Below are positions 20,301 through 58,986 of a stretch of 64,000 nucleotides of DNA, piece by piece (position 1 is the stretch's first letter; every line of letters begins with the position of its first letter). A model generated the notes under the pieces. The model was given only the letters and a program-made list of their open reading frames with translations, ran no database searches and was not told where the DNA came from. Source of the DNA: Alphaproteobacteria bacterium (GTDB lineage: Bacteria > Pseudomonadota > Alphaproteobacteria > CADEGL01); the NCBI GenBank assembly GCA_046153685.1, contig JBJXGH010000096.1:491-64490 (forward strand), in the 5' to 3' direction. The translations under genes and the position numbers were made by a program.

Positions 20301-20609
20301 GTCATCGTTTGGCCCGACACCTTCGAGCGGTATCGCGCCGTCGTCCTGGGCGCGCGCCTCTTGTCGGTCGCCGGACGCGTGCAGCGCGAGGGCATCGTGA
20401 CGCACGTGATCGCCGAGACGCTCGCCGATTTAACCGGCCATCTCGCCGAGCTTGCCGATGCCGGTCTTGCCGGTGAAAGCGAGTCCGCAAACAGCGCGTT
20501 CTCCCGCGCGGGCCAGGTGCGTCAGACCCAAGGGCAAGCCGCTCGGCCGACCACGTCACCGTCCGGCGCGCTCGACGCTGCTGATTTCCCCTCACGGGAC
20601 TTCCACTGA
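17331..20609 (+). CDS. dnaE2: error-prone DNA polymerase DnaE2 (ImuC)
   Basis: 1092 aa; MARYAELQVSTNFSFLRGASHPEELV PHP-domain N-terminus; pol III alpha core. Confidence 0.9.
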   Translation: MARYAELQVSTNFSFLRGASHPEELVEAAKALGHDAIAVTDRNTLAGAVRMHGAAKAAGLRLVPGVRLDLIDSTSILCYPIDRKSYGRLCRLLTLGQRRAEKGACALHLRDALDHAEGQIIAILPPDSPGDWLPGDRSLAERTLAEWKSAVGDRCYLVGHRLYQGDDNRRLATLADLAARHGVPLLATNDVHAHIPGRRALQDALACIRAGTTIERAGSLLFAHEERHLKAPGEMARLFRHHPDAIARTAEIGARTRFSFDDLRYEYPTETLAGETPQQTLERETLAGAHARYGGEIPPKVQAQIAYELRLIGTLGYAPYFLTVHDIVRFARERKILCQGRGSAANSAICYCLGITAVDPSRLDLLFERFVSAERNEPPDIDVDFEHERREEVIQYIYAKYGRERAGIAATVIRYRARSAIRDVGKALGLSEDMTGALAGTVWGWSGDAIRPEWLRETGFDPTDPRLGTAIDLARALIGFPRHLSQHVGGFVITRGPLEEVVPIGNAAMADRTFIEWDKDDLDMLGILKIDILALGMLTCIRKAFASIEAETGERLSLATLPAEDPAVYDMLCRADSIGVFQVESRAQMSFLPRMKPRNFYDLVIQVAIVRPGPIQGDMVHPYLRRRNGEELVELPSEELRQVLGKTLGVPLFQEQAMRIAIVAAGFTPPEADRLRRAMASFRKTGQIHIFRAKMIEGMTARGYDRAFAERCFRQIEGFGEYGFPESHAASFALLVYVSAWLKCRHPAAFACALLNSQPMGFYAPAQIVRDALEHGVEVLPIDANASAWDCTLETSPQCASPALRLGLRQIKGFAEADARRLLAARGAGYRDPRALWLRARLTLAVLENLARADSYRSMGLDRRQALWAIKALGASPLPLLSRIEDEAHEPTTQLVAPTKLPAMALLPAMTMGEQIMADYASLRLSLRAHPLTLLRARLDRDGIVPCAHLAAIESGRRTRVAGIVLVRQRPGSANGVIFATLEDETGIANVIVWPDTFERYRAVVLGARLLSVAGRVQREGIVTHVIAETLADLTGHLAELADAGLAGESESANSAFSRAGQVRQTQGQAARPTTSPSGALDAADFPSRDFH

Positions 20610-45115: not shown

Positions 45116-45718
45116 ATGGACATGACCGGCGAGTTCAGGCTCGACGCGCCGCCGGAAGTCGTGTGGCGCGCGCTCAACGACCCCGAAGTCCTCAAGCAGT
45201 GCATTCCCGGCTGTGAAACCTTGACCAAGAACTCGGATACCGAGTTCGTGGCGGAGGTGCGCGCCAAGGTCGGGCCGGTATCGGCCAGATTTACCGGCAA
45301 GGTCAGCCTGACCGATCTTGATCCGCCGAACGGCTATAGGATCTCGGGCGAGGGCCAGGGCGGCGTCGCCGGTTTTGCCAAAGGCGGAGCTGAGGTCAAA
45401 TTGGTGCCCGACGGCGCTGGCACTCTGTTGTCATACAGCGCCAACGGTCAGGTTGGCGGCAAGCTCGCCCAGATTGGCTCGCGCCTAATCGACGCAACCG
45501 CGCGCAAGATGGCCGACGATTTTTTCACCCGCTTCGCCGATGCGGTCAAAGGCGCGGCGACCGGCGCCACCGACGGCGCGGGCAAGGCCGAATCCGGAAC
45601 GCCAGCACCCGATCAACCCCTGGCCGCAGCCGCCAAGCGCAAGGGGCTTTCGCCGCTGGTTTGGATTGCGGCGGTCATCGCCGGGATCGTCATCATTTTG
45701 GCCGCATTCGGGCGCTAA
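45116..45718 (+). CDS. coxG: carbon monoxide dehydrogenase subunit G-like (SRPBCC family)
   Basis: 200 aa; N-terminal CoxG/SRPBCC fold pattern plus C-terminal TM anchor. Confidence 0.75.
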   Translation: MDMTGEFRLDAPPEVVWRALNDPEVLKQCIPGCETLTKNSDTEFVAEVRAKVGPVSARFTGKVSLTDLDPPNGYRISGEGQGGVAGFAKGGAEVKLVPDGAGTLLSYSANGQVGGKLAQIGSRLIDATARKMADDFFTRFADAVKGAATGATDGAGKAESGTPAPDQPLAAAAKRKGLSPLVWIAAVIAGIVIILAAFGR

Positions 45719-45876
45719 CTTCGGGTCGCGCCTAAATTCCCCCCGGCGCTCCCCGCATCCGGTCTTGACCGGGCGTGGACCGCCGGGGAGACTGGTGCCA
45801 AGATCGCCAAGGGGCGGCAAAGTGCGGGATTTTCGCGGGTCCGGGCAGGGCGCGCGTGTCAATGAGGGAGGAATTC

Positions 45877-46344
<468 letters not shown>

Positions 46345-46348
46345 CGCC

Positions 46349-48727
46349 ATGGCAGTATCCGGCATCGGAGCATCTGTCCGCCGAGTTGAGGATTTCCGCT
46401 TCCTGACCGGCCGTGGAAACTACACGGATGATATCAACCGGCCAAATCAGCTCCACGCACATATCCTCCGCTCGCCCCACGCCCATGCGAAGATCAAGAA
46501 GATCGACGCGTCCAAGGCGTTGAAGGCCCCGGGCGTCGTCGCCGTCTTCACGGGCGCCGATATCGAGAAGGATCAAATCGGCGGCCTGCCCTGCGGTTGG
46601 CTCGTCACCGACCGTAACGGCCAGCCCATGGTCGAGCCGCCTCACCCCATCTTGGTGGCCGAACGCGCGCGCCATGTCGGCGATCAAGTCGCGGTCGTCA
46701 TCGCCGAGACCCGCGCCCAGGCGCGCGACGCGGCGGAATTGGTCAAGATCGATTACGACGAACAGGGCGCAGCCATAGGCCTTGCTGACGCGACGAAGAA
46801 AGGCGCGCCCCTCGTGTGGGACCAGGCGCCCGGCAATATTTGCTACGATTGGGCGCTCGGCGACTCCGCCGTAGTGGACTCCGCCTTCAAGACGGCCGCC
46901 AAGGTCGCCAAGGTCGATATCGTCAACAACCGCCTCATTCCCAACGCGATGGAACCCCGCGCCGCGATCGGCGATTACGACCTCTCGAAAGGCAATTACA
47001 ATCTCTACACCACGAGCCAAAATCCGCACGTCATCCGCCTGTTGATGTCGGCCTATGTACTCAAGGTTTCCGAGCACAAGGTGCGTGTGTATTCGCCCGA
47101 TGTCGGCGGCGGGTTCGGCTCCAAGATCTACCACTATGCCGAGGAAGCCATCGTCTGCTGGGCCTCGCGGAAGCTGGGCCGGCCGGTCAAATGGACCGCC
47201 GATCGCAGCGAATCCTTCATGTCGGACGCTCACGGCCGCGATCATCTGACCAAGGCCGAAATCGCCCTCGACGCGGGCGGAAAGTTCCTGGCGATGCGCG
47301 TCGTGACGGTCGCGAACATGGGTGCCTATCTTTCGACCTTCGCGCCGTGTATTCCGACCTATCTTTACGCTCTCTTGCTGGCCGGCACCTACACCACGCC
47401 CGCGATCTTCTGCGAGGTAAAGGCGGTATTCACCCATACCGTGCCTGTCGATGCCTATCGCGGCGCGGGTAGGCCGGAAGCGACCTATGTCGTCGAACGC
47501 CTGGTGGACGAAGCCGCGCGCGTGACGGGACTGGATGTCGCGGAGATCCGGCGGCGTAATTTCATCCCGCGCGATGCCTTCCCCTACCAGACTCCGGTTG
47601 TCGTGCAGTACGATTCAGGCGACTACCAATCGACGCTCGAAATCGCGCTAAAGACGGCCGATTATTCGGGTTTCGCCGCGCGGCGCGGCGAATCGGCCAA
47701 ACGCGGCAAGCTCCGCGGCCTAGGGCTTTCGACCTATATCGAGGCCTGCGGCATCGCGCCCTCGGCGGTCGTGGGCTCGGTCGGCGCGCGAGCGGGGCTT
47801 TACGAATCGGGCCTTGTGCGCGTGCATCCGACCGGTTCGGTCACGATCCTCACCGGCTCGCACAGCCATGGCCAAGGTCACGAGACGACCTTTGCTCAGC
47901 TGGCCGCCGAACGTCTGGGCGTCGATTTCGACAAGGTCGAGGTGGTCCACGGCGACACGGACAAGATTCCGTTCGGCATGGGCACTTACGGTTCGCGCTC
48001 GCTCGCGGTCGGCGGCTCGGCGCTCGTGAAGGCCATGGACAAGATCATCGCCAAGGGCAAGAAGATCGCCGCCCATCTGCTCGAAGCGGCCGAGGCCGAT
48101 ATCGAGTTCAAGGACGGCACCTTCTCGATCGCCGGCACCGACAAGAAAAAAACCCTCGCCGAGATTTCGGGCGCGGCCTACGTGCCGCACAACTACCCGA
48201 TCGACACGCTCGAGCCGGGCCTCGAGGAGCAGGCGTTCTACGATCCGACGAATTTCACCTTCCCAGGCGGCTGTCACGTGGCCGAGGTTGAGATCGATCG
48301 CGACACGGGCGTCGTGCAATTGGTGAGCTTTGTCGCCGTCGACGACGTGGGTCGGGTCATCAATCCCATGATCGTCGAGGGTCAGGTACACGGCGGGGTC
48401 GCGCAGGGCATGGGTCAGGCGCTGCTCGAGGGCTGCGTGTACGATCAGAAGACCGGCCAACTCGTCACCGGCTCATACATGGACTACACGATGCCGCGCG
48501 CGAGCGATCTGCCGACCCTCAAGGTCAGCACCCATAATACCCTGTGCACGCACAATCCGCTGGGCGTGAAGGGTGTCGGCGAGGTCGGCGCCATCGGCTC
48601 TCCGGCCGCCATCATGAATGCCGTTCATAACGCCGTGGCGCCTTTCGGTGTCACGCATGTCGAAATGCCCGCCACGCCCGAGCGCGTTTGGCGGGCGCTG
48701 CAAAGCGCGCCCAAGGCGGCGGAATAG
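46349..48727 (+). CDS. coxL: Mo-hydroxylase large subunit, form II CoxL-like (xanthine dehydrogenase family)
   Basis: 792 aa; active-site loop AYRGAGR (form II, not the VAYRCSFR of bona fide CO dehydrogenase). Confidence 0.9.
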
Positions 48728-48741
48728 GGAGGAGATCAAAC

Positions 48742-49539
48742 ATGTACGCCTTCAACTATCACCGCGCAAAGAGCGTGGACGAGGCGGTCAAGCTCCAAAA
48801 GGGCTCGTCCGAAGGCAGTTTTCTGGCGGGCGGGCACACGCTCATCCCGACCTTGAAGCAGCGCCTCGCGAAGCCGTCGGACGTCATCGACATCTCTGGG
48901 ATCATGGAACTTCAGGGCATATCCGTCGCCGGCGGAACGGTGACGATCGGTGCTGCGACTCGCCACGGCGACGTGGCGAACTCGCCCGATGTCAAAAAGG
49001 CGATTCCGGCGCTCGCCGAACTGGCCGGACACATTGGCGATCCACAGGTGCGCAACCGCGGCACCATCGGCGGCTCGCTCGCCAATAACGACCCCGCCGC
49101 TGACTATCCAGCCGCGGTGCTCGGTCTTGGCGGGACGGTGCACACCAACAAACGGGCGATCGAGGCCGACAAGTACTTCAAGGGCCTGTTCGAGACTGCG
49201 CTCGAACAGGGCGAGGTCATCACCAAGGTAACCTTTCCGGTCGCCGAGAAGGCGGCCTACATGAAGTTCCCCAACCCCGCCTCGCGCTATGCCCTCGTAG
49301 GCGTATTCGTCGCCAAAACCAAGGGCGGCGTTCGGGTCGCGGTCACGGGCGCGGGCCCTGGCGTGTTCCGCTCGGCGGACATGGAAAAGGCTCTCGGCGC
49401 CAAGTTCGAGGCCGATGCGGTCGCCAACATCAAGGTCTCGCCCAAAAACCTCAATAGCGACATTCACGCGAGCGCCGATTATCGCGCCCATCTCGTGACG
49501 GTCATGGCCAAGCGCGCGGTCGCGAAAGCCAATAGCTGA
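48742..49539 (+). CDS. coxM: FAD-binding medium subunit of Mo hydroxylase
   Basis: 265 aa from ATG 48742 after gggaggag RBS; FAD_binding_5 / CO_deh_flav_C pattern. Confidence 0.85.
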   Translation: MYAFNYHRAKSVDEAVKLQKGSSEGSFLAGGHTLIPTLKQRLAKPSDVIDISGIMELQGISVAGGTVTIGAATRHGDVANSPDVKKAIPALAELAGHIGDPQVRNRGTIGGSLANNDPAADYPAAVLGLGGTVHTNKRAIEADKYFKGLFETALEQGEVITKVTFPVAEKAAYMKFPNPASRYALVGVFVAKTKGGVRVAVTGAGPGVFRSADMEKALGAKFEADAVANIKVSPKNLNSDIHASADYRAHLVTVMAKRAVAKANS

Positions 49540-49566
49540 TCCCGCGCCCTCGACTGCGATGAGAGC

Positions 49567-49598
49567 GGCAGGGGACCTCCCCTGCCCTCTCTGTTTTT
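49567..49598 (+). terminator. Rho-independent terminator between coxM and coxD
   Basis: GGCAGGGGA-CCT-CCCCTGCC hairpin followed by CTCTCTGTTTTT. Confidence 0.7.
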
Positions 49599-49654
49599 GG
49601 GCCCCAGCGCTCCCTACATTTGTGTAACCACCCACCGCACCGGAACCGGACTCC

Positions 49655-50575
49655 ATGGTCGCAATCCCCGCCTCGGTCGATGCCACCCTTGCCCTGTTGG
49701 CAAAGGGCAATTACATCGCCGAACGCAGCTTGGCGACGGCGACATTTTTGTCGCTCAAGCTCGGCCGTCCCCTCTTTCTCGAGGGCGAGGCCGGAGTGGG
49801 CAAGACCGAGATCGCCAAGGTTCTCGCGGCCATGCTCGGCCGCAATCTCGTGCGCCTGCAATGCTACGAGGGCCTCGATATCGCCTCGGCCGTGTATGAG
49901 TGGAATTATTCGCGCCAGATGATCGAAATACGCCTCGCCGAAGCGAGTGGAAATCTCGACCGCGAGCAATTGGGCACGGATATCTTCGCCCGCCGATTTC
50001 TCATCGAGCGCCCGCTGCTTAAGGCGCTCGAACCCGATATCGCGGGTCCACCCGTATTGCTGATCGACGAGCTCGACCGGGCGGACGAGCCCTTCGAGGC
50101 TTATTTGCTCGAAGTTCTATCCGACTACCAGATCACCATCCCGGAGTTCGGCACGATAAAGGCCGAATCTCCGCCCATCGTGATCGTAACCTCCAACCGC
50201 ACGCGCGAAATCCACGACGCGCTGAAGCGCCGCTGCTTCTATCACTGGGTCGACTTTCCGGATGCCGCGCGCGAACTCGAAATTCTACGACTCAAGGTGC
50301 CGGGTGCGGATGCGCGACTGTCGCGCGAGGTCGTATTGTTCGTCCAGCGGCTGCGCAAGATGGACCTGTTCAAGCAGCCCGGAATCGCCGAGACCATCGA
50401 TTGGACCCAGGCCCTCACCCAGCTCGACGCCATCGCGCTCGATCCCGACACGATCAACGATACCGTCGGCGCCCTGCTGAAATACCAGGACGACATCGCC
50501 AAGATCCGGGGCAGCCAGGCCGCCCAGATCCTGGAACAGGTCAAGGCGGAAATCGCGGCAACGAGCCCCGCCTAG
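49655..50575 (+). CDS. coxD: MoxR-like AAA+ ATPase
   Basis: 306 aa; Walker A GEAGVGKT, Walker B LLIDELDRA. Confidence 0.85.
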   Translation: MVAIPASVDATLALLAKGNYIAERSLATATFLSLKLGRPLFLEGEAGVGKTEIAKVLAAMLGRNLVRLQCYEGLDIASAVYEWNYSRQMIEIRLAEASGNLDREQLGTDIFARRFLIERPLLKALEPDIAGPPVLLIDELDRADEPFEAYLLEVLSDYQITIPEFGTIKAESPPIVIVTSNRTREIHDALKRRCFYHWVDFPDAARELEILRLKVPGADARLSREVVLFVQRLRKMDLFKQPGIAETIDWTQALTQLDAIALDPDTINDTVGALLKYQDDIAKIRGSQAAQILEQVKAEIAATSPA

Positions 50576-50583
50576 GCCGCGCC

Positions 50584-51828
50584 ATGGAGGACGCACGCAA
50601 CCCCGCGGACGAGGCGCTTCCAGGCGGCAAGCTGCTTGCCAATATCATGCATTTTGCGCGCGCGCTGCGCGCCGCCGGCCTGCCCATCGGCCCCGGACGG
50701 GTGATCGAGGCGGTGCGCGCGGTTGAGTGCGCGGGCATGGGCAATCGCGGCGACTTTTACTGGGCGCTCCATTCGGTGTTCGTGAGCCGGCGCGACCAAC
50801 GCGAATTGTTTGATCAAGCATTTCATGTCTTTTGGCGCAACCCGCGCATTCTCGAACGCATGATGTCCATGCTTCTGCCCCAACTCGACATTCCCGGCGC
50901 CGAGCAGGGCCAGGAGCTGTCGAAACGCGTGGCCGACGCGCTGCGCGGCAATCAGGCAAGCGACGCCGAGCGCGAGATCGAGAAGGAGCCGGAAATCACC
51001 ATCGACGCGGTGATGACATATTCCGACCGCGAATTGCTGCAAAAGATGGATTTCGAGACCATGTCCGCGGTCGAGATCGCCGAGGCGAAGAAGCGCATCC
51101 GCTCGATGCGCCTGCCCATCGCCGAGGTCCCCACGCGCCGCCACGCGCCAGACCGCGCTGGCGCACGTATCGACATGCGGGCGACATTGCGCGCGAGCCT
51201 GCGCGCGGGCGGCGGCGATATTCCCTTGAAGCGCAGAGAACCGCGCCGGCGCCATCCCCCGCTCGTCATTCTGTGTGATATTTCGGGTTCCATGAGCCGC
51301 TATTCGCGCATGTTGCTACACTTCATGCATGCCGTGACGAACGACCGCGACCGCGTGTTTTCGTTCCTGTTTGGAACGCATCTGACGAACGTCACCCGAC
51401 ATCTGCGCCAGCGCGACGTGGACGTGGCGCTGGAGCGCTGCGGCGAAGCCGCCGGCGATTGGTCCGGCGGCACACGCATCGGCCAGTCGCTCAAGGATTT
51501 CAACCGCCAGTGGTCGCGACGCGTGCTCGGCCAGGGCGCGCTCGTGTTGTTCATATCCGACGGCCTCGACCGCGACGCGGGCGATGGTCTCGCCGGCGAA
51601 ATCGAGCGGCTGCACAAATCCTGCCGCCGGCTAATTTGGCTCAATCCCCTGTTGCGTTACCAGGGATTCGAACCCAGATCATTGGGCATGCGGGCCATTC
51701 TCCCGCATGTGGACGAGTTTCGACCCGTTCATAATCTCGAAAGTCTTGCGTCGCTTGCGGCGGCCCTATCCAGCCCCGCCCCGCGACGCGGAGAGGGCAT
51801 GGCAAAATGGCAAGCGACGCTCCATTGA
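50584..51828 (+). CDS. coxE: VWA domain-containing CoxE-like protein
   Basis: In-frame ATG 50584; C-terminal VWA with MIDAS-like LCDISGSM. Confidence 0.8.
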   Translation: MEDARNPADEALPGGKLLANIMHFARALRAAGLPIGPGRVIEAVRAVECAGMGNRGDFYWALHSVFVSRRDQRELFDQAFHVFWRNPRILERMMSMLLPQLDIPGAEQGQELSKRVADALRGNQASDAEREIEKEPEITIDAVMTYSDRELLQKMDFETMSAVEIAEAKKRIRSMRLPIAEVPTRRHAPDRAGARIDMRATLRASLRAGGGDIPLKRREPRRRHPPLVILCDISGSMSRYSRMLLHFMHAVTNDRDRVFSFLFGTHLTNVTRHLRQRDVDVALERCGEAAGDWSGGTRIGQSLKDFNRQWSRRVLGQGALVLFISDGLDRDAGDGLAGEIERLHKSCRRLIWLNPLLRYQGFEPRSLGMRAILPHVDEFRPVHNLESLASLAAALSSPAPRRGEGMAKWQATLH

Positions 51829-52163
51829 ACGCGCAAGCGAACGCGCTCGCGCACGAGAACATTCTCGAAGCGGCCTCCGAATGGTTGCAATCTGGCCGTC
51901 GGGTGGCACTGGCGACTGTGGTCACGACCTGGGGTTCTTCTCCCCGCCCGATCGGTAGCCAGTTGGCGGTCGACGACAAGGGCGCGATGATCGGCTCTGT
52001 TTCCGGCGGCTGCATCGAAGGTGCGGTGGTGCAGGAGGCCCTGGCTGCCATCGAGGACGGCAAGCCGCGCGTGCTCGATTTCGGCGTCACGCACGAACAG
52101 GCCTGGGCCGTGGGCCTTGCGTGCGGCGGCAAGGTGCAGGTTTACCTCGAGCGCATGGAATGA
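51807..52163 (+). CDS. XdhC family protein, N-terminal (XdhC_CoxI) module as separate ORF
   Basis: 118 aa; ..VALATVVTTWGSSPRPIGSQLAV...GSVSGGCIE. Confidence 0.7.
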   Translation: MASDAPLNAQANALAHENILEAASEWLQSGRRVALATVVTTWGSSPRPIGSQLAVDDKGAMIGSVSGGCIEGAVVQEALAAIEDGKPRVLDFGVTHEQAWAVGLACGGKVQVYLERME

Positions 52164-52882
52164 AACGCGAGCTCCTCGGCGCCCTGCTGGCCGCGCGGGC
52201 GGCAAAAACCCCGATCGCGCTCGCAACCAGACTCGACACCGGTGCACAAGCCTTGATCGGGCCTATGCCGGTCGGCGGGACCTGGTCGCGCGGCGATCTC
52301 ACGCTCGACGCGGATTCGCTTGCGGCCGTACACCTTGCGCTTGCCGGCGACACGAGCGGCATGATCGAAACACCTTCGTTCCGGATATTCGTCCAGGTGT
52401 ACAACCCGCCCCTGCGCCTCATCGTGGTCGGAGCCGTGCACATCGCCCAGGCGCTCGTGCCCATGGCCGCGCTCGCGGGCTACTCGGTCGTAGTCGTCGA
52501 TCCGCGCCGCGCCTTCGCTACCGATGCGCGCTTTCCCCATACCACCGTCACGACCGAATGGCCGGACGACGCCATGTCGCGACTCGCGCCCGATCGACGC
52601 ACGGCCGTCGTGACCCTAACCCACGATCCCAAGCTCGACGACCCGGCGCTGACGGTGGCGCTCAAATCCGATGCCTTTTACATCGCGGCGCTCGGAAGCC
52701 GGAAAACCCATGGCGCGCGCCTGAAACGCCTCAAGGATGCGGGCTTCGACGGCGCGGCGCTTGCGCGCATCCACGGCCCCGCGGGCCTTGCCATCGGCGC
52801 CAAGTCCCCTGCCGAAATTGCGCTTTCCATCATGGCCCAGGCGACCCAGATTCTCCACGCGAAGACCGGGGCGGAAGGGTGA
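52160..52882 (+). CDS. XdhC/CoxI family protein, C-terminal Rossmann-like module
   Basis: ATGA overlap with the preceding ORF; LIVVGAVHIAQALVPMAALAGYSVVVVDPR pattern. Confidence 0.7.
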   Translation: MKRELLGALLAARAAKTPIALATRLDTGAQALIGPMPVGGTWSRGDLTLDADSLAAVHLALAGDTSGMIETPSFRIFVQVYNPPLRLIVVGAVHIAQALVPMAALAGYSVVVVDPRRAFATDARFPHTTVTTEWPDDAMSRLAPDRRTAVVTLTHDPKLDDPALTVALKSDAFYIAALGSRKTHGARLKRLKDAGFDGAALARIHGPAGLAIGAKSPAEIALSIMAQATQILHAKTGAEG

Positions 52883-54540
52883 AGTTCGGCGACGTGCCGC
52901 TCGCCGAAGCCGAGGGCGCGATCCTCGCCCATGGTCTTGTTCTGCCCGGCCCAAGCGGCCCGCGTGGGGCCACCTACAAGAAGGGCCGGCGCCTGACGGC
53001 CGAGGATATCGGCGCCATCGCAAGAGCGGGAATCACGCGCGTGACAGTCGCGCGGCTCGACGGGGCGGACGCGCACGAGGACGAAGCGGCCGCAACCCTC
53101 GCCCGAGCCGCCGCGGGCCCGGGTCTCGAGACCGCGGCCCCCTTCACGGGGCGCGCCAATCTGTTCGCTGCGGCGCGCGGCCTCGCGGTCATCGATCGCA
53201 CCCGCATCGACGCCATCAACACCATCGACGAAGCCATCACGCTTGCGACCGTGCCGCCTTACGAGGTGGTCGAGGCGCGCCAGATGGTGGCGACGGTGAA
53301 GATCATCCCCTTTGCCGTGCCGCGCGCCTTGCTCGACCGCGCTCTGGCTATCACGAGCGCGGGCGGCGCGCTGGCTCGCGTCGCCCCCTTCCGGCCGCGC
53401 CCCGTCGCGCTCATCCAAACGCGCCTGGCAGGGATGAAAGAAGCCGTTCTCGACAAGACCGTCGCGATCGTTCGCGCGCGCATCGAGGCGCTGGGCAGCA
53501 CCCTTTCCGGCGAGCAGCGGTGCGCGCACGAAATAGAGGCGGTGCGCGCGGCCATCGCAAAGGCACAGAGCAGCGGCGCCGAGCTCGTGCTGATCGCCGG
53601 CGCGTCCGCGATCACCGATCGGCGTGACGTCGTGCCCGCGGCCATCGTCGCCGCGGGCGGGCGCATCGAGCATTTCGGCATGCCGGTCGATCCCGGAAAC
53701 CTTCTGCTACTCGCGCACGGCAACGCCAGCATCATATTGGGCCTGCCGGGCTGCGTGCGCTCGCCCAAGTTCAACGGTTTCGACTGGGTGCTGCGCCGCA
53801 TTCTCGCCGACGTGCCGGTCGTGGGGCGCGATCTCATGCTGATGGGCGCGGGTGGACTGCTCAATGAAATCCCAAGCCGCCCGATGCCGCGCGCGGGCGA
53901 TGCGGCGCCTGACGATCGCGCGCACAGCCAAAAGCGCCCAAAAATCGCCGCGCTGGTACTGGCCGCGGGGCTGTCGCGCCGGATGGGGCCGCGGAACAAA
54001 TTGCTTGCCGCGATCGACGGCGCACCCATGGTTGCACGCGCGGTGGACGCGGCGCTCGCCTCGCGCGCGCGACCCGTGGTCGTCGTGATCGGGCACGAGG
54101 CCGAGCGGGTGCAGAACGCCTTGGGTCACAAGCGCAAAGTCGAATTCGTCCACAATCCTGACTTCGCCCAGGGTTTGAGCGCTTCGCTGCAGCGCGGTCT
54201 CGCCGCCCTACCGCGGGATTGCGACGGCGTGCTGATCTGCCTTGGCGATATGCCGCGCGTAAGGGCGCAGACTCTTGACGCCCTGATCGACGCGTTCCAG
54301 CCGCTCGAGGGTCGCGCCATCTGCGTGCCGACCTTCCGCGGCAAGCGCGGCAATCCCGTGCTGTTCGCACGGCAGTTTTTCGCCGAAATGGCAGCGATCG
54401 CGGGCGATGTGGGCGCTCGCCACCTGATCGGAGAAAATACCGAGCTCGTCGCCGAAATCGACATGACCGACGAGGGTATCTTGCTCGATGTCGATTCGCC
54501 CGATGCGCTGGCCGCGCTCGATCCGGCCAAAACCGCGTGA
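52879..54540 (+). CDS. molybdopterin-binding (MoCF-biosynthesis domain) / MocA-like cytidylyltransferase fusion protein
   Basis: GTG start overlapping the xdhC stop (GTGA). The N-terminal half is a MoeA/CinA-like Moco-binding domain. The C-terminal half has the AALVLAAGLSRRMG..NK nucleotidyltransferase motif of MocA/MobA. Confidence 0.7.
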   Translation: MKFGDVPLAEAEGAILAHGLVLPGPSGPRGATYKKGRRLTAEDIGAIARAGITRVTVARLDGADAHEDEAAATLARAAAGPGLETAAPFTGRANLFAAARGLAVIDRTRIDAINTIDEAITLATVPPYEVVEARQMVATVKIIPFAVPRALLDRALAITSAGGALARVAPFRPRPVALIQTRLAGMKEAVLDKTVAIVRARIEALGSTLSGEQRCAHEIEAVRAAIAKAQSSGAELVLIAGASAITDRRDVVPAAIVAAGGRIEHFGMPVDPGNLLLLAHGNASIILGLPGCVRSPKFNGFDWVLRRILADVPVVGRDLMLMGAGGLLNEIPSRPMPRAGDAAPDDRAHSQKRPKIAALVLAAGLSRRMGPRNKLLAAIDGAPMVARAVDAALASRARPVVVVIGHEAERVQNALGHKRKVEFVHNPDFAQGLSASLQRGLAALPRDCDGVLICLGDMPRVRAQTLDALIDAFQPLEGRAICVPTFRGKRGNPVLFARQFFAEMAAIAGDVGARHLIGENTELVAEIDMTDEGILLDVDSPDALAALDPAKTA

Positions 54541-54547
54541 CCGGATA

Positions 54548-54976
54548 GTGGCCGAAGACCTATACCAAACCCGCTTGATCGCCCACGCCAAAGCGGCCCA
54601 CGGCAAGGGCCGAATCGCGCATCCCCATGGCAGCGCGCTTGCGGACAATCCGTTGTGCGGCGACCGCGTGCGCGTCGATATCCGCCTGCATCTCGGTCAG
54701 ATCGCCGAACTCAAGCACGAAGTGCGCGGCTGTCTCTTGTGCGAAGCGGCCGCCTCGGTCATGGGCGCGCACGTGCCTGGACTCGACGCATCCGCAATCG
54801 CCGACGCCGCGCGCGCGCTTGGCGCTTTTCTCAAGGGCAAGTCCGAGGCATTACCAGCGAACTGGCCGGAACTGGCCGATTTCGCCCCGGTGCGCGGCCA
54901 TCGCAGCCGGCATGGCTGCGTCCTTCTGCCTTTCGCCGCCGCCGAACAGGCGCTGCACAAGGCGCGCGGCGGCTGA
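54548..54976 (+). CDS. NifU/IscU-like Fe-S cluster assembly scaffold family protein
   Basis: LYQTRLIAHAKA..NPLCGDRV..GC..C pattern; start uncertain (GTG 54548 or ATG 54488). Confidence 0.55.
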   Translation: MAEDLYQTRLIAHAKAAHGKGRIAHPHGSALADNPLCGDRVRVDIRLHLGQIAELKHEVRGCLLCEAAASVMGAHVPGLDASAIADAARALGAFLKGKSEALPANWPELADFAPVRGHRSRHGCVLLPFAAAEQALHKARGG

Positions 54977-55020: not shown

Positions 55021-56712
55021 ATGGGACGCAGGGAATTATGGGCGAACGTTCGCACGGTACGGTTGATCACCGGCCTTGTGCTCTTTGCCTATGTGGCGAC
55101 GCATCTGCTCAATCACGCGGTGGGGGTTTTCTCTCTCGGCGCCGCCGAGAGCGCGCGTCACTGGTTTCTCTGGCTCTGGCGTAATCCCATCGGAACGCCG
55201 GTTCTGTATGCCAGCATCGCGATCCATTTCTTGCTCGCGCTGTGGTCGGTGTATCGCCGCCGAATCTTGCGCATGAAAGCGTGGGAAGCGGCGCAAATGC
55301 TGCTGGGCCTATCCATCCCGCCGCTCCTGATCGAGCACGCCATCGGCACGCGCGGCCTACACGAAATCACCGGATTGCAAGACAGCTACACCTACATTTC
55401 TCTCGTCCTTTGGGTTTGGCTGCCGGAGAAGGCCACGCAACAGATCGCGGCCCTTGCCATTGCCTGGTTGCACGGCTGCATCGGATTGCATTTCTGGCTG
55501 CGTCTCAAGCCTTGGTACCGAAGGGCGGTGCCGGTCTTTTACGCGGGCGCGCTCGTCCTGCCGCTGCTGGCTGTCGGCGGCTTTGTCAATATGGGCCGCG
55601 AGGCCGCCGCGCTGGCACGCGATCCGTCTTGGCTCGACACCGCGAAAGCCGCCATTGGATTTCCGGGAAAGGATATCGTGGCCGAAGCGGGTGCCATGCG
55701 CGACACGCTATTGTATCTGTTTGTCGCGCTGCTGGCCGCGACCTTTGCCTTGCGCGCGCTACGGCTATGGGTGGAGCGCCGACGCGGCATCGTGCGCGTG
55801 ACCTATTTCAGCAAGCGGCAGGTCGAGATCACGCCTGGCATGACACTGCTTGAAGCCAGCCGCATGGCCGGAATTCCCCATGCCTCAGTGTGTGGAGGGC
55901 GCGGGCGGTGCTCGACCTGCAGAGTGCGCGTGAGCACCGGCCTTGACCGCCAGCCGCAAGCGAGCGATGCCGAACGCAAGGTCCTTGACCGAGTGGGCGC
56001 GCCGCCCAATGTGCGCCTCGCCTGTCAACTGCGACCGAAATTCGACCTGACGATTGTGCCGCTATTGCCAACGGACGTCTCGCCGCGAGCGGCCCAGGCA
56101 CGGCCTGCCCATCTCGGCGGCGAGGAAATGGAGATCGCCATCCTGTTCGCCGATCTCCGCGGTTTCACCAAGCTGTCCGAGGGCAGGCTGCCCTACGACG
56201 TCGTCTTCGTTCTCAACCGATATTTCGAGGCCATGGGCCGGGCGGTCGAGGAATCCGGCGGCACGCTCGACAAGTTCATTGGCGACGGCGTCATGGCACT
56301 ATTCGGAATCGAGCGCGGCACCACCGCTGGCTGCCGCGAAGCCCTGGCCGCCGCCCGCGCGATGGCCACGCGCCTGGCCGAACTTAACCGCTCGCTCGGA
56401 TCGGACCTCGAAGAGCCGCTACGCATCGGCATCGGCATCCATGTGGGCACCGCAATCGTCGGCGAGATGGGTTATGCCCGCGCAGTCTCGGTCACCGCCG
56501 TCGGCGACGCCGTGAATACGGCCAGCCGACTCGAAGGCCTGACGAAGGGATACGGCGCGGAATTGGTGATATCGGAGGGGGTGGCCGAGGCGGCGGGCAT
56601 CAATCTCGATGCGCACGACCGCCACCGCGTGGAGATTCGCGGCCGAAGCGAACCGTTGCACATCCGGGTGATTGTCGAAGCCATCAGCCTCCCCAAAGGT
56701 CCGCCCCCCTAG
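55021..56712 (+). CDS. membrane-anchored [2Fe-2S] ferredoxin / class III adenylate-guanylate cyclase fusion
   Basis: 563 aa. About 6 N-terminal TM helices. Plant-type ferredoxin segment ..CGGRGRCSTCRV..LAC.. at ~aa 255-345. CHD cyclase domain (ILFADLRGFT..GDGVMALFG..) at ~aa 370-540. Confidence 0.8.
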   Translation: MGRRELWANVRTVRLITGLVLFAYVATHLLNHAVGVFSLGAAESARHWFLWLWRNPIGTPVLYASIAIHFLLALWSVYRRRILRMKAWEAAQMLLGLSIPPLLIEHAIGTRGLHEITGLQDSYTYISLVLWVWLPEKATQQIAALAIAWLHGCIGLHFWLRLKPWYRRAVPVFYAGALVLPLLAVGGFVNMGREAAALARDPSWLDTAKAAIGFPGKDIVAEAGAMRDTLLYLFVALLAATFALRALRLWVERRRGIVRVTYFSKRQVEITPGMTLLEASRMAGIPHASVCGGRGRCSTCRVRVSTGLDRQPQASDAERKVLDRVGAPPNVRLACQLRPKFDLTIVPLLPTDVSPRAAQARPAHLGGEEMEIAILFADLRGFTKLSEGRLPYDVVFVLNRYFEAMGRAVEESGGTLDKFIGDGVMALFGIERGTTAGCREALAAARAMATRLAELNRSLGSDLEEPLRIGIGIHVGTAIVGEMGYARAVSVTAVGDAVNTASRLEGLTKGYGAELVISEGVAEAAGINLDAHDRHRVEIRGRSEPLHIRVIVEAISLPKGPPP

Positions 56713-56738: not shown

Positions 56739-57218
56739 CTACGAGCCCTTGGCTTTCTTGTGCTTCTCGATCTTCTCGGCGAGGTCGCGCTTCTCCTCGC
56801 AATTGCGGCACGCCCTATCGAGCACCTTGAGGCGCTCCTCGGCGGCCGCCAGATCGCCCATCTGCAGATAAAGCTCGCCCAAATATTCGTTCGCGCCTAA
56901 GTGGTTTGGCTCGATGTCGAGGGCGCGTTTGTAGTATCCGAGCGCCTTCTCGCGCTCGCCGAGATTACGGTGGCTATAGCCGAGATAGTTAAGCGCGTTG
57001 GCATTGCGCGGTTCGGTCGCGATGATCTTCTCGAAAAGCGCGATGGCGCCCTTGAAATCCTTGTCCTTCACGGCCTTTTCGGCCTTTGTGTAATCGGGCG
57101 AGCCCTTCGCCGCGCCTGCCGCAGGATCGCTGCCCATCGCCCATGCGCGCTCCGGTCCAGAGCATACCGCCACCAGCAATGCGCCAAGGCCGACCACCAT
57201 CCATATTGGAAATCTCAT
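56739..57218 (-). CDS. TPR repeat-containing secreted protein
   Basis: Start at MRFPIWMVVGLGALLVAVCSG (signal peptide) with GGGGAG RBS; TPR motifs (NALNYLGYSHRNLGEREKALGYYKRALDIEPNH..). Confidence 0.65.
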   Translation of the reverse strand: MRFPIWMVVGLGALLVAVCSGPERAWAMGSDPAAGAAKGSPDYTKAEKAVKDKDFKGAIALFEKIIATEPRNANALNYLGYSHRNLGEREKALGYYKRALDIEPNHLGANEYLGELYLQMGDLAAAEERLKVLDRACRNCEEKRDLAEKIEKHKKAKGS

Positions 57219-57633
57219 CGCGACAACTCCCCGCTTAGTCATGCTCGCCACTTTTGGTTCAACCGATGGGGATAATACGCATGGCGATGTGGCAGGTCCG
57301 TCGCCGAATCGGTAAAAAGGAAATTTATCCGGCTGGGACGACCGAAGCGATTTGGATTCGGCCGACGCCGCCCAGGGTAATTGACCATGGCCCGGATTGC
57401 GATTTAAGGACCTCGATTCGAGGGTAATTCAGAGAAATAAGACAAACTTACAGGTACAATATTATGGTTCAACCTTGGAATTTTAATTCGCGCCGACCAA
57501 TTCGGCCAAGTTTCTATTTTAGAATTAGGTGCTCCTTAGGGCCTTCTTTAATTTGACGAAATAAATTGACATTTTAGCCTTTTCCTAGGTACTATGGTTG
57601 TGACCGGCACCCAGAGATTATACAAACGAGACC
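57219..57633. repeat. anomalous AT-rich intergenic region with multiple short direct repeats
   Basis: About 40-45% GC versus ~65% flanking. TGGTTCAACC appears twice, GGGTAATT twice, GATTCG several times, AGGTAC-(N)-TATGGTT twice, and TTGAC -35-like hexamers several times. Confidence 0.6.
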
Positions 57634-58986
57634 ATGGCACGCGTTACTTTTACTGACGATGTCCTTCAGGTTCAGCCCCCTTCTCGCGGGCAAATCGATC
57701 TTTGGGACGAATCGTTCCCCGGATTCGGTCTGCGTATTTCGCAAGGTGGAACCCGCGCATGGGTAGTCATGGTTCGCCGCGACCGCCGCAAGGTTCGCGT
57801 GACGCTCGGCACCTATCCCGAAATGCCCGTCGAGACCGCACGTGGCCTGGCCCGCAGCCTGCTAGATGAAAGTCGCCGGCAGCACGGTACGCCACGACGC
57901 GGACGCGTCCCACGCGCCATGAGGTCTGCGGACTCGCGACATGCGCCTGCGGAGTATGCCGTCGATCCCGCCGCCGCCGGACTCCTGCCGGTATCATCGG
58001 CCGAGTTCCGGCGCACGGCCGCGCGACTCATTCAATTGATGGGCGAATTGCTTCGCCCCGATATGGCCCCCCCCGAACGCGACGCGCTCGACCGCCTGAT
58101 CCAGGCTGGCGCGCATATGGCCCCGACTCCCCCCGGGCTAGCGAAGGCCAGCCCGACCCTTCCCTCGGAAAGCCATGCGCCCGTCGCCACAGCGGACGTT
58201 ACGACCCCGATCCATAAGCCGCCCTCCGCCCAAAAGCCGCGCCTATTGCTGGTGGAGGACACCGAGCTCAATCGTTTGGTCACGCTGGCCATGCTGGGCA
58301 CGGCGCGGTTCGACATCGATTGCGTAACCAGCGGTGAAGCTGCTCTGGCCTCGGCGCAGGAAATTCTCTACGACGTGATTCTCATGGATATTTCCATGCC
58401 CGAAATGGACGGCATCGCCGCCACGCGCGCAATCCGCAGCCTGGCACCGCCCGTGTGCGACGTTCCGATTCTGGCTTTGACCGCCCATGCCATGGTTGGC
58501 GACCGCGAGCGCTGCCTAGCTGCGGGCGTGGATGACTACCTGCCCAAGCCCGTATCACGCAGCGATCTGTTGGAGCGCGTCGAGCGCTTCGCCCGGCATG
58601 GCCGCGCAGCCGCCGCCGATATCACGGGTGCGAGCGATGAGCCCGCGCTGAATCCCGAAGCGTTCGAGCAGCTACGAAGGGATTTAGGCCCGGCCTCGTT
58701 GATGCAGCTGTATGACGCAACCTTGCCTGAGCTTCAGACCCGCACGGCGGCCGCCAAGGCCGCCAACGAAGCTCGCGATCTCGACGCCCTGGCCCGCATC
58801 GCCCACTCGCTCAAGGGCGTCGCGACAACAATCGGCGCAAGGCGCCTTCAGGCCGCGACGACAGCGCTCGAAGCTGCGGCGCGCTCGGGCAGTACTCACG
58901 AAATCGCGCGCCTCCTCGAAAGCCTCGATGCACTTTCGGAAAAAACCATTCGCGCAATCGCCGCCGAACGCAGTCGAATCAGCTAG
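57634..58986 (+). CDS. chimeric regulator with phage-integrase N-terminal arm-type DNA-binding domain (DUF4102), receiver (REC) domain and Hpt domain
   Basis: aa 1-80: LQVQPPSRGQIDLWDESFPGFGLRISQGGTRAWVVMVRRDRRKVRVTLGTYPEMPVETARGLA matches the P4-type integrase arm-binding domain. aa ~202-318: REC with LLLVEDTELN..D(252)ISMPEMDG..ALTAH..K(305)P. aa ~340-445: Hpt with H391 in IAHSLKGVA. No integrase catalytic domain is present. The 5' ~150 nt has lower GC and AT-ending codons. Confidence 0.7.
   Translation: MARVTFTDDVLQVQPPSRGQIDLWDESFPGFGLRISQGGTRAWVVMVRRDRRKVRVTLGTYPEMPVETARGLARSLLDESRRQHGTPRRGRVPRAMRSADSRHAPAEYAVDPAAAGLLPVSSAEFRRTAARLIQLMGELLRPDMAPPERDALDRLIQAGAHMAPTPPGLAKASPTLPSESHAPVATADVTTPIHKPPSAQKPRLLLVEDTELNRLVTLAMLGTARFDIDCVTSGEAALASAQEILYDVILMDISMPEMDGIAATRAIRSLAPPVCDVPILALTAHAMVGDRERCLAAGVDDYLPKPVSRSDLLERVERFARHGRAAAADITGASDEPALNPEAFEQLRRDLGPASLMQLYDATLPELQTRTAAAKAANEARDLDALARIAHSLKGVATTIGARRLQAATTALEAAARSGSTHEIARLLESLDALSEKTIRAIAAERSRIS

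Follow-up and report, generated by a model that had tools for sequence, protein, structure and literature searches.

A probable CyaC-type class IIIb adenylate cyclase with a dihaem cytochrome b-like membrane domain and a [2Fe-2S] ferredoxin domain, encoded beside a cox-like gene cluster in an alphaproteobacterium

Introduction

A cluster of class IIIb cyclases carrying a ferredoxin between the membrane anchor and the catalytic domain was described by Beltz et al. 2016 (eLife 5:e13098; PMC4821796), who noted four precisely spaced intramembrane His residues and predicted the presence of two haems. Cluster 1 of their six-transmembrane (6TM) anchors, which occurs in alpha- and beta-proteobacteria and at that time comprised 30 sequences (PMC4821796), combines the four His, a ferredoxin and a class IIIb domain (e.g. 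Rhodopseudomonas palustris Q132R4), as does the protein described here.

According to a passage in Klein et al. 2023 (PMC10463352) that cites Wissig et al. 2019 (Mol Microbiol 112:16), the family member CyaC of Sinorhizobium meliloti (SMc01818) carries two haem B and a [2Fe-2S] cluster; it is stated there that the haems are oxidised or reduced by ubiquinone and that oxidation activates the cyclase. The same authors drew a parallel with the E. coli histidine kinase ArcB, whose regulatory output follows the ubiquinone/ubiquinol ratio (PMC10463352). ArcB is a functional analogue only, unrelated to our protein; it employs cysteine oxidation and a phosphorelay rather than putative haem/Fe-S cofactors and cAMP.

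CyaC-type enzymes were thus foreseen in 2016, their characterisation followed in 2019, and the family is now far larger than cluster 1 was. Here we describe an ordinary member of this known, large family, encoded within an alphaproteobacterial contig (the window, i.e. the whole analysed stretch of DNA, 64,000 nucleotides). Its host belongs to a lineage of the Alphaproteobacteria different from that of S. meliloti.

Results and Discussion

Gene and domain organization

Translation revealed that the gene is an intact ORF of 563 codons with an unbroken reading frame, whose start codon at position 55021 matches the N-terminus of a homologue with 91% identity (P0001). Its main parts are as follows:

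55021–56712, plus strand: complete gene of probable CyaC type, stop codon included, product of 563 aa (ORF, Pfam, full-length homologues)
55021–55785, plus strand: N-terminal membrane domain, residues 1–255 (hydropathy, AlphaFold2 model, Foldseek)
55813–56040, plus strand: predicted cytoplasmic Fer2 [2Fe-2S] domain, residues 265–340 (Pfam, NCBIfam and PDB profile matches)
56131–56652, plus strand: class IIIb cyclase catalytic domain, residues 371–544 (Pfam, PDB matches, residue conservation)

In the protein, six TM helices are followed by the Fer2 domain and then by the class III cyclase domain. The initial annotation had proposed such a three-part fusion of membrane, ferredoxin and cyclase segments, and this was borne out by Pfam (which found both Fer2 and Guanylate_cyc), hydropathy analysis and the AlphaFold2 model. 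The motifs on which that proposal was based are also present, at residues 291–302 (CGGRGRCSTCRV), 333–335 (LAC) and 374–383 (ILFADLRGFT).

Full-length homologues, with up to 91% identity to the window cyclase, all contain PF00111 and PF00211, and are so numerous that the architecture is far beyond what chance could produce. Species-representative genomes contain at least 596 loci of the family, and a search with the TM domain alone matched 1,963 clusters (defined at 50% identity) at E≤1e-10. The nearest relatives of the protein are encoded by metagenome-assembled genomes (MAGs) of unclassified Alphaproteobacteria; a megablast search of the PLSDB plasmids produced no match to the region.

The S. 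meliloti enzyme shares with the window protein the order 6TM anchor, [2Fe-2S] ferredoxin, class III domain, as well as the tetra-His signature, and homologues from Rhizobiaceae can be aligned with the window protein over the full length at 40–47% identity. These rhizobial homologues, the common architecture and the matching residue numbers (see below) point to homology with CyaC. We therefore regard the product of the window gene as a probable redox-regulated class IIIb adenylate cyclase of the CyaC type, with dihaem b-like and [2Fe-2S] modules.

Membrane domain

The predicted transmembrane helices (hydropathy, AlphaFold2 model) and the candidate haem ligands within them are located as follows:

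55054–55131, plus strand: TM1 (residues ~12–37)
55102–55104, plus strand: His28 codon, TM1, candidate axial ligand of the putative distal haem, invariant (90/90)
55186–55254, plus strand: TM2 (residues ~56–78)
55225–55227, plus strand: His69 codon, TM2, candidate axial ligand of the putative proximal haem, invariant (90/90)
55288–55344, plus strand: TM3 (residues ~90–108)
55336–55338, plus strand: His106 codon, TM3 near the periplasmic end, candidate axial ligand of the putative distal haem, invariant (90/90)
55441–55500, plus strand: TM4 (residues ~141–160)
55471–55473, plus strand: His151 codon, TM4, candidate axial ligand of the putative proximal haem, invariant (90/90)
55519–55590, plus strand: TM5 (residues ~167–190)
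55696–55770, plus strand: TM6 (residues ~226–250)

Hydropathy analysis identified six hydrophobic segments, and in the AlphaFold2 model of residues 1–258 (mean pLDDT 92.1) the same positions are occupied by six long helices, in agreement with the approximately six helices initially annotated. The distribution of K/R residues in the loops (14 cytoplasmic vs 8 periplasmic) fits the predicted N-in/C-in topology.

An alignment of 90 full-length family members, sharing 39–91% identity with the window protein, contains exactly four invariant His residues (H28, H69, H106 and H151), each of the helices TM1–TM4 carrying one. The same four residues are also invariant in a 25-sequence alignment reaching 33% identity.

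Comparison of the anchor model with the PDB (Foldseek) placed dihaem cytochrome b subunits (chain C) in the top six positions, all with a probability of 1.00 and with TM-scores of 0.45–0.55. These belong to the quinol:fumarate reductases of Wolinella succinogenes and D. gigas and to the succinate dehydrogenase of Chloroflexus; the next matches had probabilities of ≤0.25, and the top hits thus stand well apart, although their E-values are marginal (0.04–0.12). FrdC of W. succinogenes (chain C of 1QLB/2BS2/1E7P) and the related type-B complex II anchors 5XMJ_C of D. gigas and 9LAY_C of Chloroflexus are the sole confident structural matches of the model, with a TM-score of ~0.5 over ~225 columns and a sequence identity of 14–17%.

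A search of all PDB sequences with a HMMER profile built from the TM domain retrieved only a designed coiled coil (E 1.3) and no cytochrome b. Alignment of the TM profile with FrdC by hhalign (the sequence used is identical to 1QLB_C) yielded a weak local match of 30 residues (probability 3.7%), which sets His106 opposite His44 of FrdC. Neither method gave a significant match, so that the likeness of the anchor to cytochrome b was seen here at the level of the fold, and the BLAST-level likeness to cytochrome b subunits described by Beltz et al. (PMC4821796) was not reproduced against PDB sequences.

FrdC consists of five TM helices, to which a flavoprotein/Fe-S dimer docks, whereas the window anchor has six and continues into the ferredoxin and cyclase domains of the same polypeptide. 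In both proteins each of the four His sits on a helix of its own, and the intervals between them are comparable in size, 41/37/45 residues in the window protein versus 49/50/39 for the haem ligands H44/H93/H143/H182 of FrdC.

The model thus supports a dihaem cytochrome b-like fold for the anchor. This fold, together with four invariant intramembrane His residues, suggests that the membrane domain is itself the redox input and not a mere anchor. The initial annotation had treated this part of the protein as a membrane anchor; the six helices are real, but the four invariant His and the dihaem b-like fold had been overlooked.

Ferredoxin domain

The Fer2 domain was recognized by Pfam in residues 265–340 (E 2.3e-10; 40.7 bits vs a cutoff of 21). 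Its predicted cluster ligands are encoded as follows:

55891–55893, plus strand: C291 codon, predicted [2Fe-2S] ligand
55909–55911, plus strand: C297 codon, predicted [2Fe-2S] ligand
55918–55920, plus strand: C300 codon, predicted [2Fe-2S] ligand
56023–56025, plus strand: C335 codon, predicted [2Fe-2S] ligand

These residues are retained in 90, 90, 89 and 90 of the 90 homologues, respectively. The reading of this segment as a ferredoxin, which loss of the cysteines from homologues would have called into question, therefore survives. The initial term "plant-type" was imprecise: plant-type ferredoxins have the spacing C-x4-C-x2-C-x29-C, whereas the predicted ligands in the window protein are arranged as C-x5-C-x2-C-x34-C. 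The best matches of the domain are the N-terminus of NqrF and the ISC ferredoxin (NCBIfam), and ferredoxins of the ISC and putidaredoxin/adrenodoxin types (PDB profile search).

Positions 7–118 of the NqrF model align with TM6 and Fer2 of the window protein (residues 231–345; E 4.8e-10). The score of 38.9 against a cutoff of 295 bits indicates that the two proteins have only the domain type in common, and the FAD/NADH domain of NqrF is absent from the window protein.

Cyclase domain

Residues 371–544 were assigned to Guanylate_cyc by Pfam (E 4.3e-18; 66 bits vs a cutoff of 21.9). The best PDB sequence matches are the bacterial adenylate cyclases 2W01, 1WC0 and 3R5G (E 1e-23 to 1e-31). The catalytic domain aligns end to end with these class IIIb structures, including 3R5G "CyaB", and with the photoactivated cyclases 5M27 and 4YUS (E 1e-20 to 1e-31 for the whole set), and has metal, substrate and transition-state residues in common with them. 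The inputs of these enzymes are light or other signals, and none of them has a dihaem anchor, unlike the window protein.

The domain contains the metal-binding D378 and D422, the adenine-specifying K418 and T492, the transition-state residues N499 and R503, and, in addition, R468 and K509. D378, D422 and R503 are invariant, while K418, T492, N499 and K509 are present in 72–88 of the 90 homologues. In S. meliloti CyaC the counterparts of K418/T492/N499/R503, shifted uniformly by eight positions (+8 in the window protein), are K410/T484/N491/R495, i.e. the residues that were mutated in order to inactivate that enzyme; these include the Lys/Thr pair specifying adenine in class IIIb enzymes, mutation of which was used to kill CyaC activity (PMC10463352).

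Proposed mechanism of regulation

In the mechanism that we propose, TM1–TM4 would form the haem-binding bundle of a six-helix dihaem cytochrome b-like module that exchanges electrons with the quinone/quinol pool. The distal haem b, on the periplasmic side, would be ligated by H28 and H106, and the proximal haem b, on the cytoplasmic side, by H69 and H151. The [2Fe-2S] domain (C291, C297, C300, C335), which directly follows TM6, appears to be suitably placed to pick up the redox state of the proximal haem or pass it on. The cyclase domain, starting ~25 residues beyond Fer2 and equipped with all of the residues expected for the conversion of ATP to cAMP, would function as a homodimer. If the protein behaves like CyaC, cyclase activity would rise when quinone oxidises the cofactors and fall when NADH or quinol reduces them.

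The presence of all cofactor ligands and catalytic residues means that gating by quinone is supported by homology, and it is from homology that we infer haem and Fe-S occupancy, quinone responsiveness, the direction of regulation, dimerization and downstream targets. The original suggestion, in which electron flow in the membrane or the state of the quinones gates second-messenger output, agrees with what was found for S. meliloti CyaC (PMC10463352). A search of 40 ORFs of the window for genes encoding CRP/cNMP-binding or TetR (CycR-like) proteins found none.

Genomic neighbourhood

The cyclase gene is flanked by the following features:

45116–54540, plus strand: form-II cox-like cluster comprising coxG, coxS, coxL, coxM, an AAA coxD-like gene, a VWA coxE-like gene, a split xdhC and a MoeA-like/MocA fusion (Pfam)
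54548–54976, plus strand: SufU/NifU_N-like Fe-S scaffold gene, ending 44 nt before the cyclase gene (Pfam NifU_N; NCBIfam SufU 63 bits, below the cutoff)
56739–57251, minus strand: gene of a small, predicted secreted TPR protein, convergent with the cyclase gene (Pfam TPR)

The annotated order of Mo-hydroxylase genes, MoeA/MocA fusion, NifU_N/SufU-like gene and cyclase was confirmed by Pfam, with MoCF_biosynth and NTP_transf_3 domains detected in the fusion protein. This setting differs from that of S. meliloti cyaC, which is adjoined by the TetR-type gene cycR, a trait of that locus and not necessarily of the family; the window gene has no such gene upstream, but the SufU-like gene and the cox-like cluster on one side and the TPR gene on the other. 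Inspection of the most frequent neighbour clusters around the 65 loci revealed no TetR-like family.

The neighbouring CoxL has the form-II motif AYRGAGR, and its NCBIfam scores are under the cutoffs for both CO dehydrogenase and glyceraldehyde dehydrogenase. Given this motif and the sub-cutoff score, identity as a CO dehydrogenase is not demonstrated, and we rejected the possibility that this is a bona fide CO dehydrogenase cluster. Also rejected was the NifU-like gene as a specific partner of the cyclase: in L164 and L167 it trails the MoeA/MocA-like gene with the cyclase not directly adjoining, i.e. it travels with the Moco/cox maturation genes and not with the cyclase.

The most recurrent neighbour within the cyclase subfamily is the TPR protein, whose gene adjoins that of the cyclase at 12 of 65 genome loci, in varying orientation. 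Alignment revealed a conserved C-x2-3-C pair near its C-terminus. In a reciprocal test the cyclase was present at 15 of 80 metagenomic TPR loci. The TPR protein is a possible partner of the cyclase.

Is the cyclase linked to the cox-like system?

The immediate setting of the gene suggests another reading, that the cyclase is a dedicated sensor of the adjoining cox-like molybdenum hydroxylase, co-transcribed with its structural and maturation genes and coupling enzyme turnover to cAMP, either by taking the enzyme's electrons at the membrane or by reading local quinone reduction. The cyclase gene lies on the same strand, 44 nt past the last gene of the cluster, with no terminator- or promoter-like site in the gap, and the same layout, with gaps of 40–44 nt, occurs in L003, L081, L082 and L083, whose cyclases are 64–69% identical. 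Looser versions are found in L014, L054, L110 and L164. In a neighbour-joining tree (unbootstrapped, star-like at depth, with L164 left out), L014, L054 and L110 fall outside the clade of the window protein.

Across the family, however, the association is rare. Among 65 species-level loci, namely those encoding a full-length family member, cox genes are located beside the cyclase in three, and none occurs within 10 kb in the remaining 62; no family of neighbours recurs at more than 11 of the 65 loci. Reciprocally, of eight Moco-maturation clusters (MoeA/MocA-like protein 59–64% identical) only that of L164 has the cyclase nearby. The initial annotation had hinted at a redox-to-cAMP link with the cox/Moco system, and had named a lack of linkage to cox genes in most genomes as evidence against its reading, which is what the 62 loci display; as a property of the family, such a link is unsupported by these counts, adjacency of cyclase and cox genes being conserved only among close relatives of the window.

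In L054 and L164 a gene on the opposite strand lies between cluster and cyclase, which means that co-transcription has not been conserved. In the close relatives, synteny runs past the cyclase into TPR, RR-Hpt, DAO, aminotransferase and arginase genes, which fits inherited gene order better than selection on the pair. Furthermore, S. meliloti CyaC answers to the general quinone pool (PMC10463352). A dedicated sensor of the cox-like enzyme is for these reasons unlikely, and our search of the literature for a cox–cyclase link found nothing relevant.

In a more elaborate version, which we regard as quite unlikely, the cyclase would have been recruited in these uncultured Alphaproteobacteria as a dedicated reporter of the form-II CoxSLM-like enzyme, sharing a transcript with the Moco and Fe-S maturation genes of the latter. 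The dihaem anchor would be, or adjoin, the enzyme's point of electron entry into the membrane, and the convergently encoded secreted TPR/Cys-pair protein would, as a periplasmic partner, tune the distal haem, the whole constituting a substrate-specific redox-to-cAMP circuit instead of a sensor of the quinone pool at large.

Other alternatives to the CyaC-type reading

Nucleotide cyclases under the control of haem-based gas sensors are known, CyaC activity in membranes is reportedly also responsive to O2, and the window gene adjoins a CO dehydrogenase-like cluster; the putative haem anchor might accordingly bind O2, CO or NO as a ligand and sense such a diatomic gas instead of quinone redox state. 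Four invariant His on four helices nevertheless imply two bis-His six-coordinate haems, as in the cytochrome b of fumarate reductase, and haems of this kind are typically electron carriers that lack an open coordination site. Moreover, the adjoining CoxL resembles form II and is not an established CO dehydrogenase, and linkage to cox genes is rare in the family, so that gas sensing is very improbable.

That the cyclase domain is catalytically dead or produces cGMP, the protein serving mainly in electron transfer or as a scaffold, is extremely improbable: Gln or Asn replaces the adenine-specifying Lys in 18 of the 90 family members, and activity may thus be altered in some branches of the family, but the window protein keeps all eight of the residues listed above (D378, K418, D422, R468, T492, N499, R503 and K509), the class IIIb Lys/Thr pair among them, and guanylate cyclase activity of CyaC is said to be undetectable.

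Significance

On the reading that we prefer, a CyaC-type cyclase regulated by quinone redox state, the fusion is of a kind already explained. The analysis goes slightly beyond the literature consulted in three respects. The family is very large, the anchor alone being matched at E≤1e-10 by ~2,000 clusters defined at 50% identity; hardly any member departs from the pattern of four His and four Cys; and one subfamily recurs beside the TPR/Cys-pair protein, while a few lineages have the gene beside a form-II cox-like cluster. If the TPR or the cox association is functional, it would give a hint of how one of the many sources of cAMP becomes wired to a specific input, which matters in bacteria that have dozens of cyclases.

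Domain layout and membrane anchor

The cyclase gene of the window is intact, and its ATG start yields the same N-terminus as that of a 91%-identical database protein. Two domains scored above the curated Pfam cutoffs, and no Pfam match was obtained for residues 1-255:

55021-56712, + strand: cyclase gene, single unbroken 563-codon ORF
Residues 265-340 of the cyclase: Fer2 (Pfam E 2.3e-10)
Residues 371-544 of the cyclase: Guanylate_cyc (Pfam E 4.3e-18)

Hydropathy analysis revealed six hydrophobic segments, at about residues 12-37, 56-78, 90-108, 141-160, 167-190 and 226-250. The ORF, the Pfam matches, the hydropathy profile and the presence of the quoted motifs bear out the fusion of TM helices, ferredoxin and cyclase described in the initial annotation.

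Alignments were built from the window protein and 24 full-length homologues, with distant members (down to 33% identity) included for the N-terminal domain. Only four histidines (H28, H69, H106 and H151) stay unchanged throughout this N-terminal alignment, and the helices TM1-TM4 carry one apiece. Each is also a histidine in 90/90 sequences of a larger alignment (39-91% identity), in which the remaining anchor histidines, H32 and H157, are variable.

The AlphaFold2 model of residues 1-258 was confident (mean pLDDT 92.1, pTM 0.86). When this model was compared with the PDB using Foldseek, a probability of 1.00 was reached only by chain C, the dihaem cytochrome b subunit, of three enzymes – the quinol:fumarate reductases of Wolinella succinogenes and Desulfovibrio gigas, and the succinate dehydrogenase of Chloroflexus (TM-scores 0.45-0.55 over approx. 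225 columns); all other matches had a probability of ≤0.25 and a TM-score of <0.3. At the sequence level, a profile search of PDB sequences with the anchor returned nothing relevant to cytochrome b kinship, and hhalign against W. succinogenes FrdC (sequence of 1QLB_C) produced only a weak local match, placing TM3/H106 opposite helix I/H44 of FrdC. The loop charges, together with the requirement that the Fe-S and ATP-using domains be cytoplasmic, predict an N-in/C-in topology. Judging by depth within the helices, H28 and H106 are candidate ligands of a periplasm-side haem, and H69 and H151 of a cytoplasm-side haem.

Ferredoxin and catalytic domains

The predicted cysteine ligands of the [2Fe-2S] cluster are spaced C-x5-C-x2-C-x34-C in the window protein and are conserved in the homologues (C291, C297 and C335 in 90/90, C300 in 89/90). 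At the level of families, this part matched best the N-terminal region of NqrF, which comprises a TM helix and Fer2 (E 4.8e-10), and ISC ferredoxin; the closest solved structures were those of ISC ferredoxin and putidaredoxin. A [2Fe-2S] ferredoxin domain is thus present as first described, but the label "plant-type" is imprecise, given the cysteine spacing and these matches.

Over its whole length, the cyclase domain can be aligned with the structures of the bacterial adenylate cyclases 2W01, 1WC0 and 3R5G (E 1e-23 to 1e-31), and it retains the catalytic residues for metal binding (D378, D422), adenine specificity (K418, T492) and the transition state (N499, R503), as well as R468 and K509. 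Threonine at the adenine-specifying position is a hallmark of class IIIb.

Replacements at these positions occur elsewhere in the family (homologous loci from other genomes or metagenomes are designated by L numbers). The equivalent of K418 is Gln or Asn in 18/90 members: Gln in L007, L010, L016, L019, L025, L027, L038, L039, L043, L044, L048, L050, L051, L055, L058 and L068, and Asn in L056 and L074, both of which additionally carry Pro where the window protein has T492. The four histidines are kept in 18/18 of these members and all four cysteines in 17/18; His occupies the N499 position in four loci. The replacements at K418, T492 and N499 suggest that some branches may have altered nucleotide specificity or activity.

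Relationship to CyaC

Class IIIb cyclases in which a ferredoxin separates the anchor from the catalytic domain were described as one cluster by Beltz et al. 2016 (PMC4821796); the anchors of these cyclases resemble the cytochrome b subunits of fumarate reductase/succinate dehydrogenase and contain four precisely spaced intramembrane histidines, from which two haems were predicted. Klein et al. 2023 (PMC10463352), with reference to Wissig et al. 2019, describe CyaC of Sinorhizobium meliloti (SMc01818) as having a 6TM domain with two haem B, which are oxidised or reduced by ubiquinone, plus a [2Fe-2S] cluster, and as being activated by oxidation. CyaC is inactivated by mutation of K410/T484 and N491/R495 (Klein et al. 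2023, PMC10463352); compared by residue number, these correspond to K418/T492 and N499/R503 of the window protein with a single constant offset of +8. On the strength of the anchor, ferredoxin and catalytic features and of this constant match, the window protein is of the CyaC type as far as sequence can tell, and has all of its sequence-testable defining features.

In species-representative genomes the family has at least 596 loci. The full-length query matched 7,991 proteins at E≤1e-10, the best 120 of which are all full-length with both Pfam domains, while lower-ranking matches may cover the cyclase domain only. The anchor alone matched 2,767, 1,963 and 836 clusters (50% identity) at E≤1e-3, 1e-10 and 1e-30, respectively. 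The CyaC-type family is large and already known, and the window protein is one more member.

Genomic neighbourhood of the cyclase gene

The genes 5' of the cyclase are, as originally stated, coxG, coxS, coxL, coxM, AAA coxD-like, VWA coxE-like, a split xdhC, a MoeA-like/MocA fusion and a SufU/NifU_N-like gene. Two of them are considered individually:

46349-48727, + strand: CoxL-like large subunit with the form-II active-site motif AYRGAGR
54548-54976, + strand: SufU/NifU_N-like scaffold gene (also in L164, 5729-6163, and L167, 5678-6109)

CoxL fell short of the NCBIfam cutoff for aerobic CO dehydrogenase (659 vs 991 bits) and also of that for glyceraldehyde dehydrogenase (683 vs 790 bits). 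From its motif and these scores, the "cox" cluster is identifiable as a Mo-hydroxylase only. A second molybdenum hydroxylase large subunit is encoded at 6783-9092 (+).

XdhC/CoxF is split into overlapping ORFs at 51807-52163 (XdhC_CoxI N-domain) and 52121-52882 (XdhC_C Rossmann domain), both on the + strand. The split is identical in every related locus examined (L081-L083, L164-L171), which indicates a conserved arrangement and not a frameshift.

In several lineages the SufU-like gene is the final gene of a coxDE-xdhC-MoeA/MocA-like maturation set. In L164 and L167 it comes after the MoeA/MocA-like gene, and no cyclase is its immediate neighbour there; it thus belongs with the maturation genes, and is rejected as a cyclase-specific partner on this gene order. 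The scaffold may be the source of the [2Fe-2S] clusters in CoxS.

The initial annotation had tied the cyclase to the cox system, a proposal that was to fall if the majority of genomes showed no linkage of the gene to cox genes, and this is what we observed. Of 65 species-level loci encoding a full-length member of the family (≤10 kb of flank per side), only L003, L014 and L054 have cox genes beside the cyclase (with an opposite-strand TPR gene in between in L054), and clustering of all neighbours revealed no family common to more than 11/65 loci. Reciprocally, the cyclase was near one (L164) of eight clusters with a MoeA/MocA-like protein 59-64% identical to that of the window, separated from it by an opposite-strand hydrolase gene. 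Cox-adjacent cyclases occupy more than one place in an unbootstrapped NJ tree, whose deep branches lack resolution.

The window arrangement is kept, with gaps of 40-44 nt, in L081, L082 and L083 (cyclases 64-69% identical). These loci also share the genes past the cyclase (TPR, RR-Hpt, DAO, aminotransferase, arginase), which points to ordinary lineage synteny. The 44-nt gap before the cyclase contains no promoter-like or terminator-like site, so co-transcription with the upstream cluster is possible in the source organism. We consider it improbable that the cyclase has a lineage-specific functional link to the cox cluster.

The convergent gene on the 3' side is the following:

56739-57251, - strand: TPR protein of approx. 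160 aa with a signal peptide and TPR repeats

Close to its C-terminus the encoded protein has a conserved C-x2-3-C pair, and its only NCBIfam matches were generic TPR ones. Orthologues (37-62% identity) adjoin the cyclase in 12/65 genome loci, which come from several lineages at the family level and show four relative orientations of the two genes. The cyclase was present in 15/80 metagenomic loci found via the TPR protein, and in four of the 24 with ≥1.2 kb of flank per side. The protein was seen in L003, L005, L014 (two tandem copies), L015, L021, L023, L028, L032, L041, L049, L054, L070, L081-L083 and L171; in L171 its gene lies beside a cox-maturation cluster without the cyclase. Every TPR-linked cyclase falls in the subfamily whose identity to the window protein is approx. 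49% or more. These data are suggestive, short of proof, of an association of the TPR protein with the cyclase, of which it is a more recurrent neighbour than the cox genes.

A 450-aa ORF at 57634-58986 (+) contains Arm-DNA-bind_3 (integrase-type, residues 20-79), receiver (205-317) and Hpt (359-435) domains, and also adjoins the TPR gene in L003, L081, L082 and L083. A 788-aa relative (L171, 9570-end) additionally contains PAS, HisKA and HATPase_c, and by this comparison the window ORF looks like a hybrid kinase without its kinase core. Elsewhere in the window, a DnaE2-like DNA polymerase III alpha subunit is encoded at 17331-20609 (+); two ORFs just upstream of it, 14864-15751 (+) and 16227-16724 (-), had no Pfam matches.

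Proposed mode of action

A scan of 40 ORFs of the window turned up no CRP/cNMP-binding or TetR gene as a possible cAMP target. That the window protein binds the cofactors and responds to redox state, and in which direction it is regulated, is presumed by analogy. The dihaem b anchor would equilibrate with the quinone pool, the fused [2Fe-2S] domain would pass on the redox state, and the class IIIb catalytic domain, presumably a homodimer, would produce cAMP, with higher activity in the oxidised state, as in CyaC. The combination of dihaem anchor, [2Fe-2S] relay and class IIIb cyclase probably constitutes a quinone-responsive source of cAMP.
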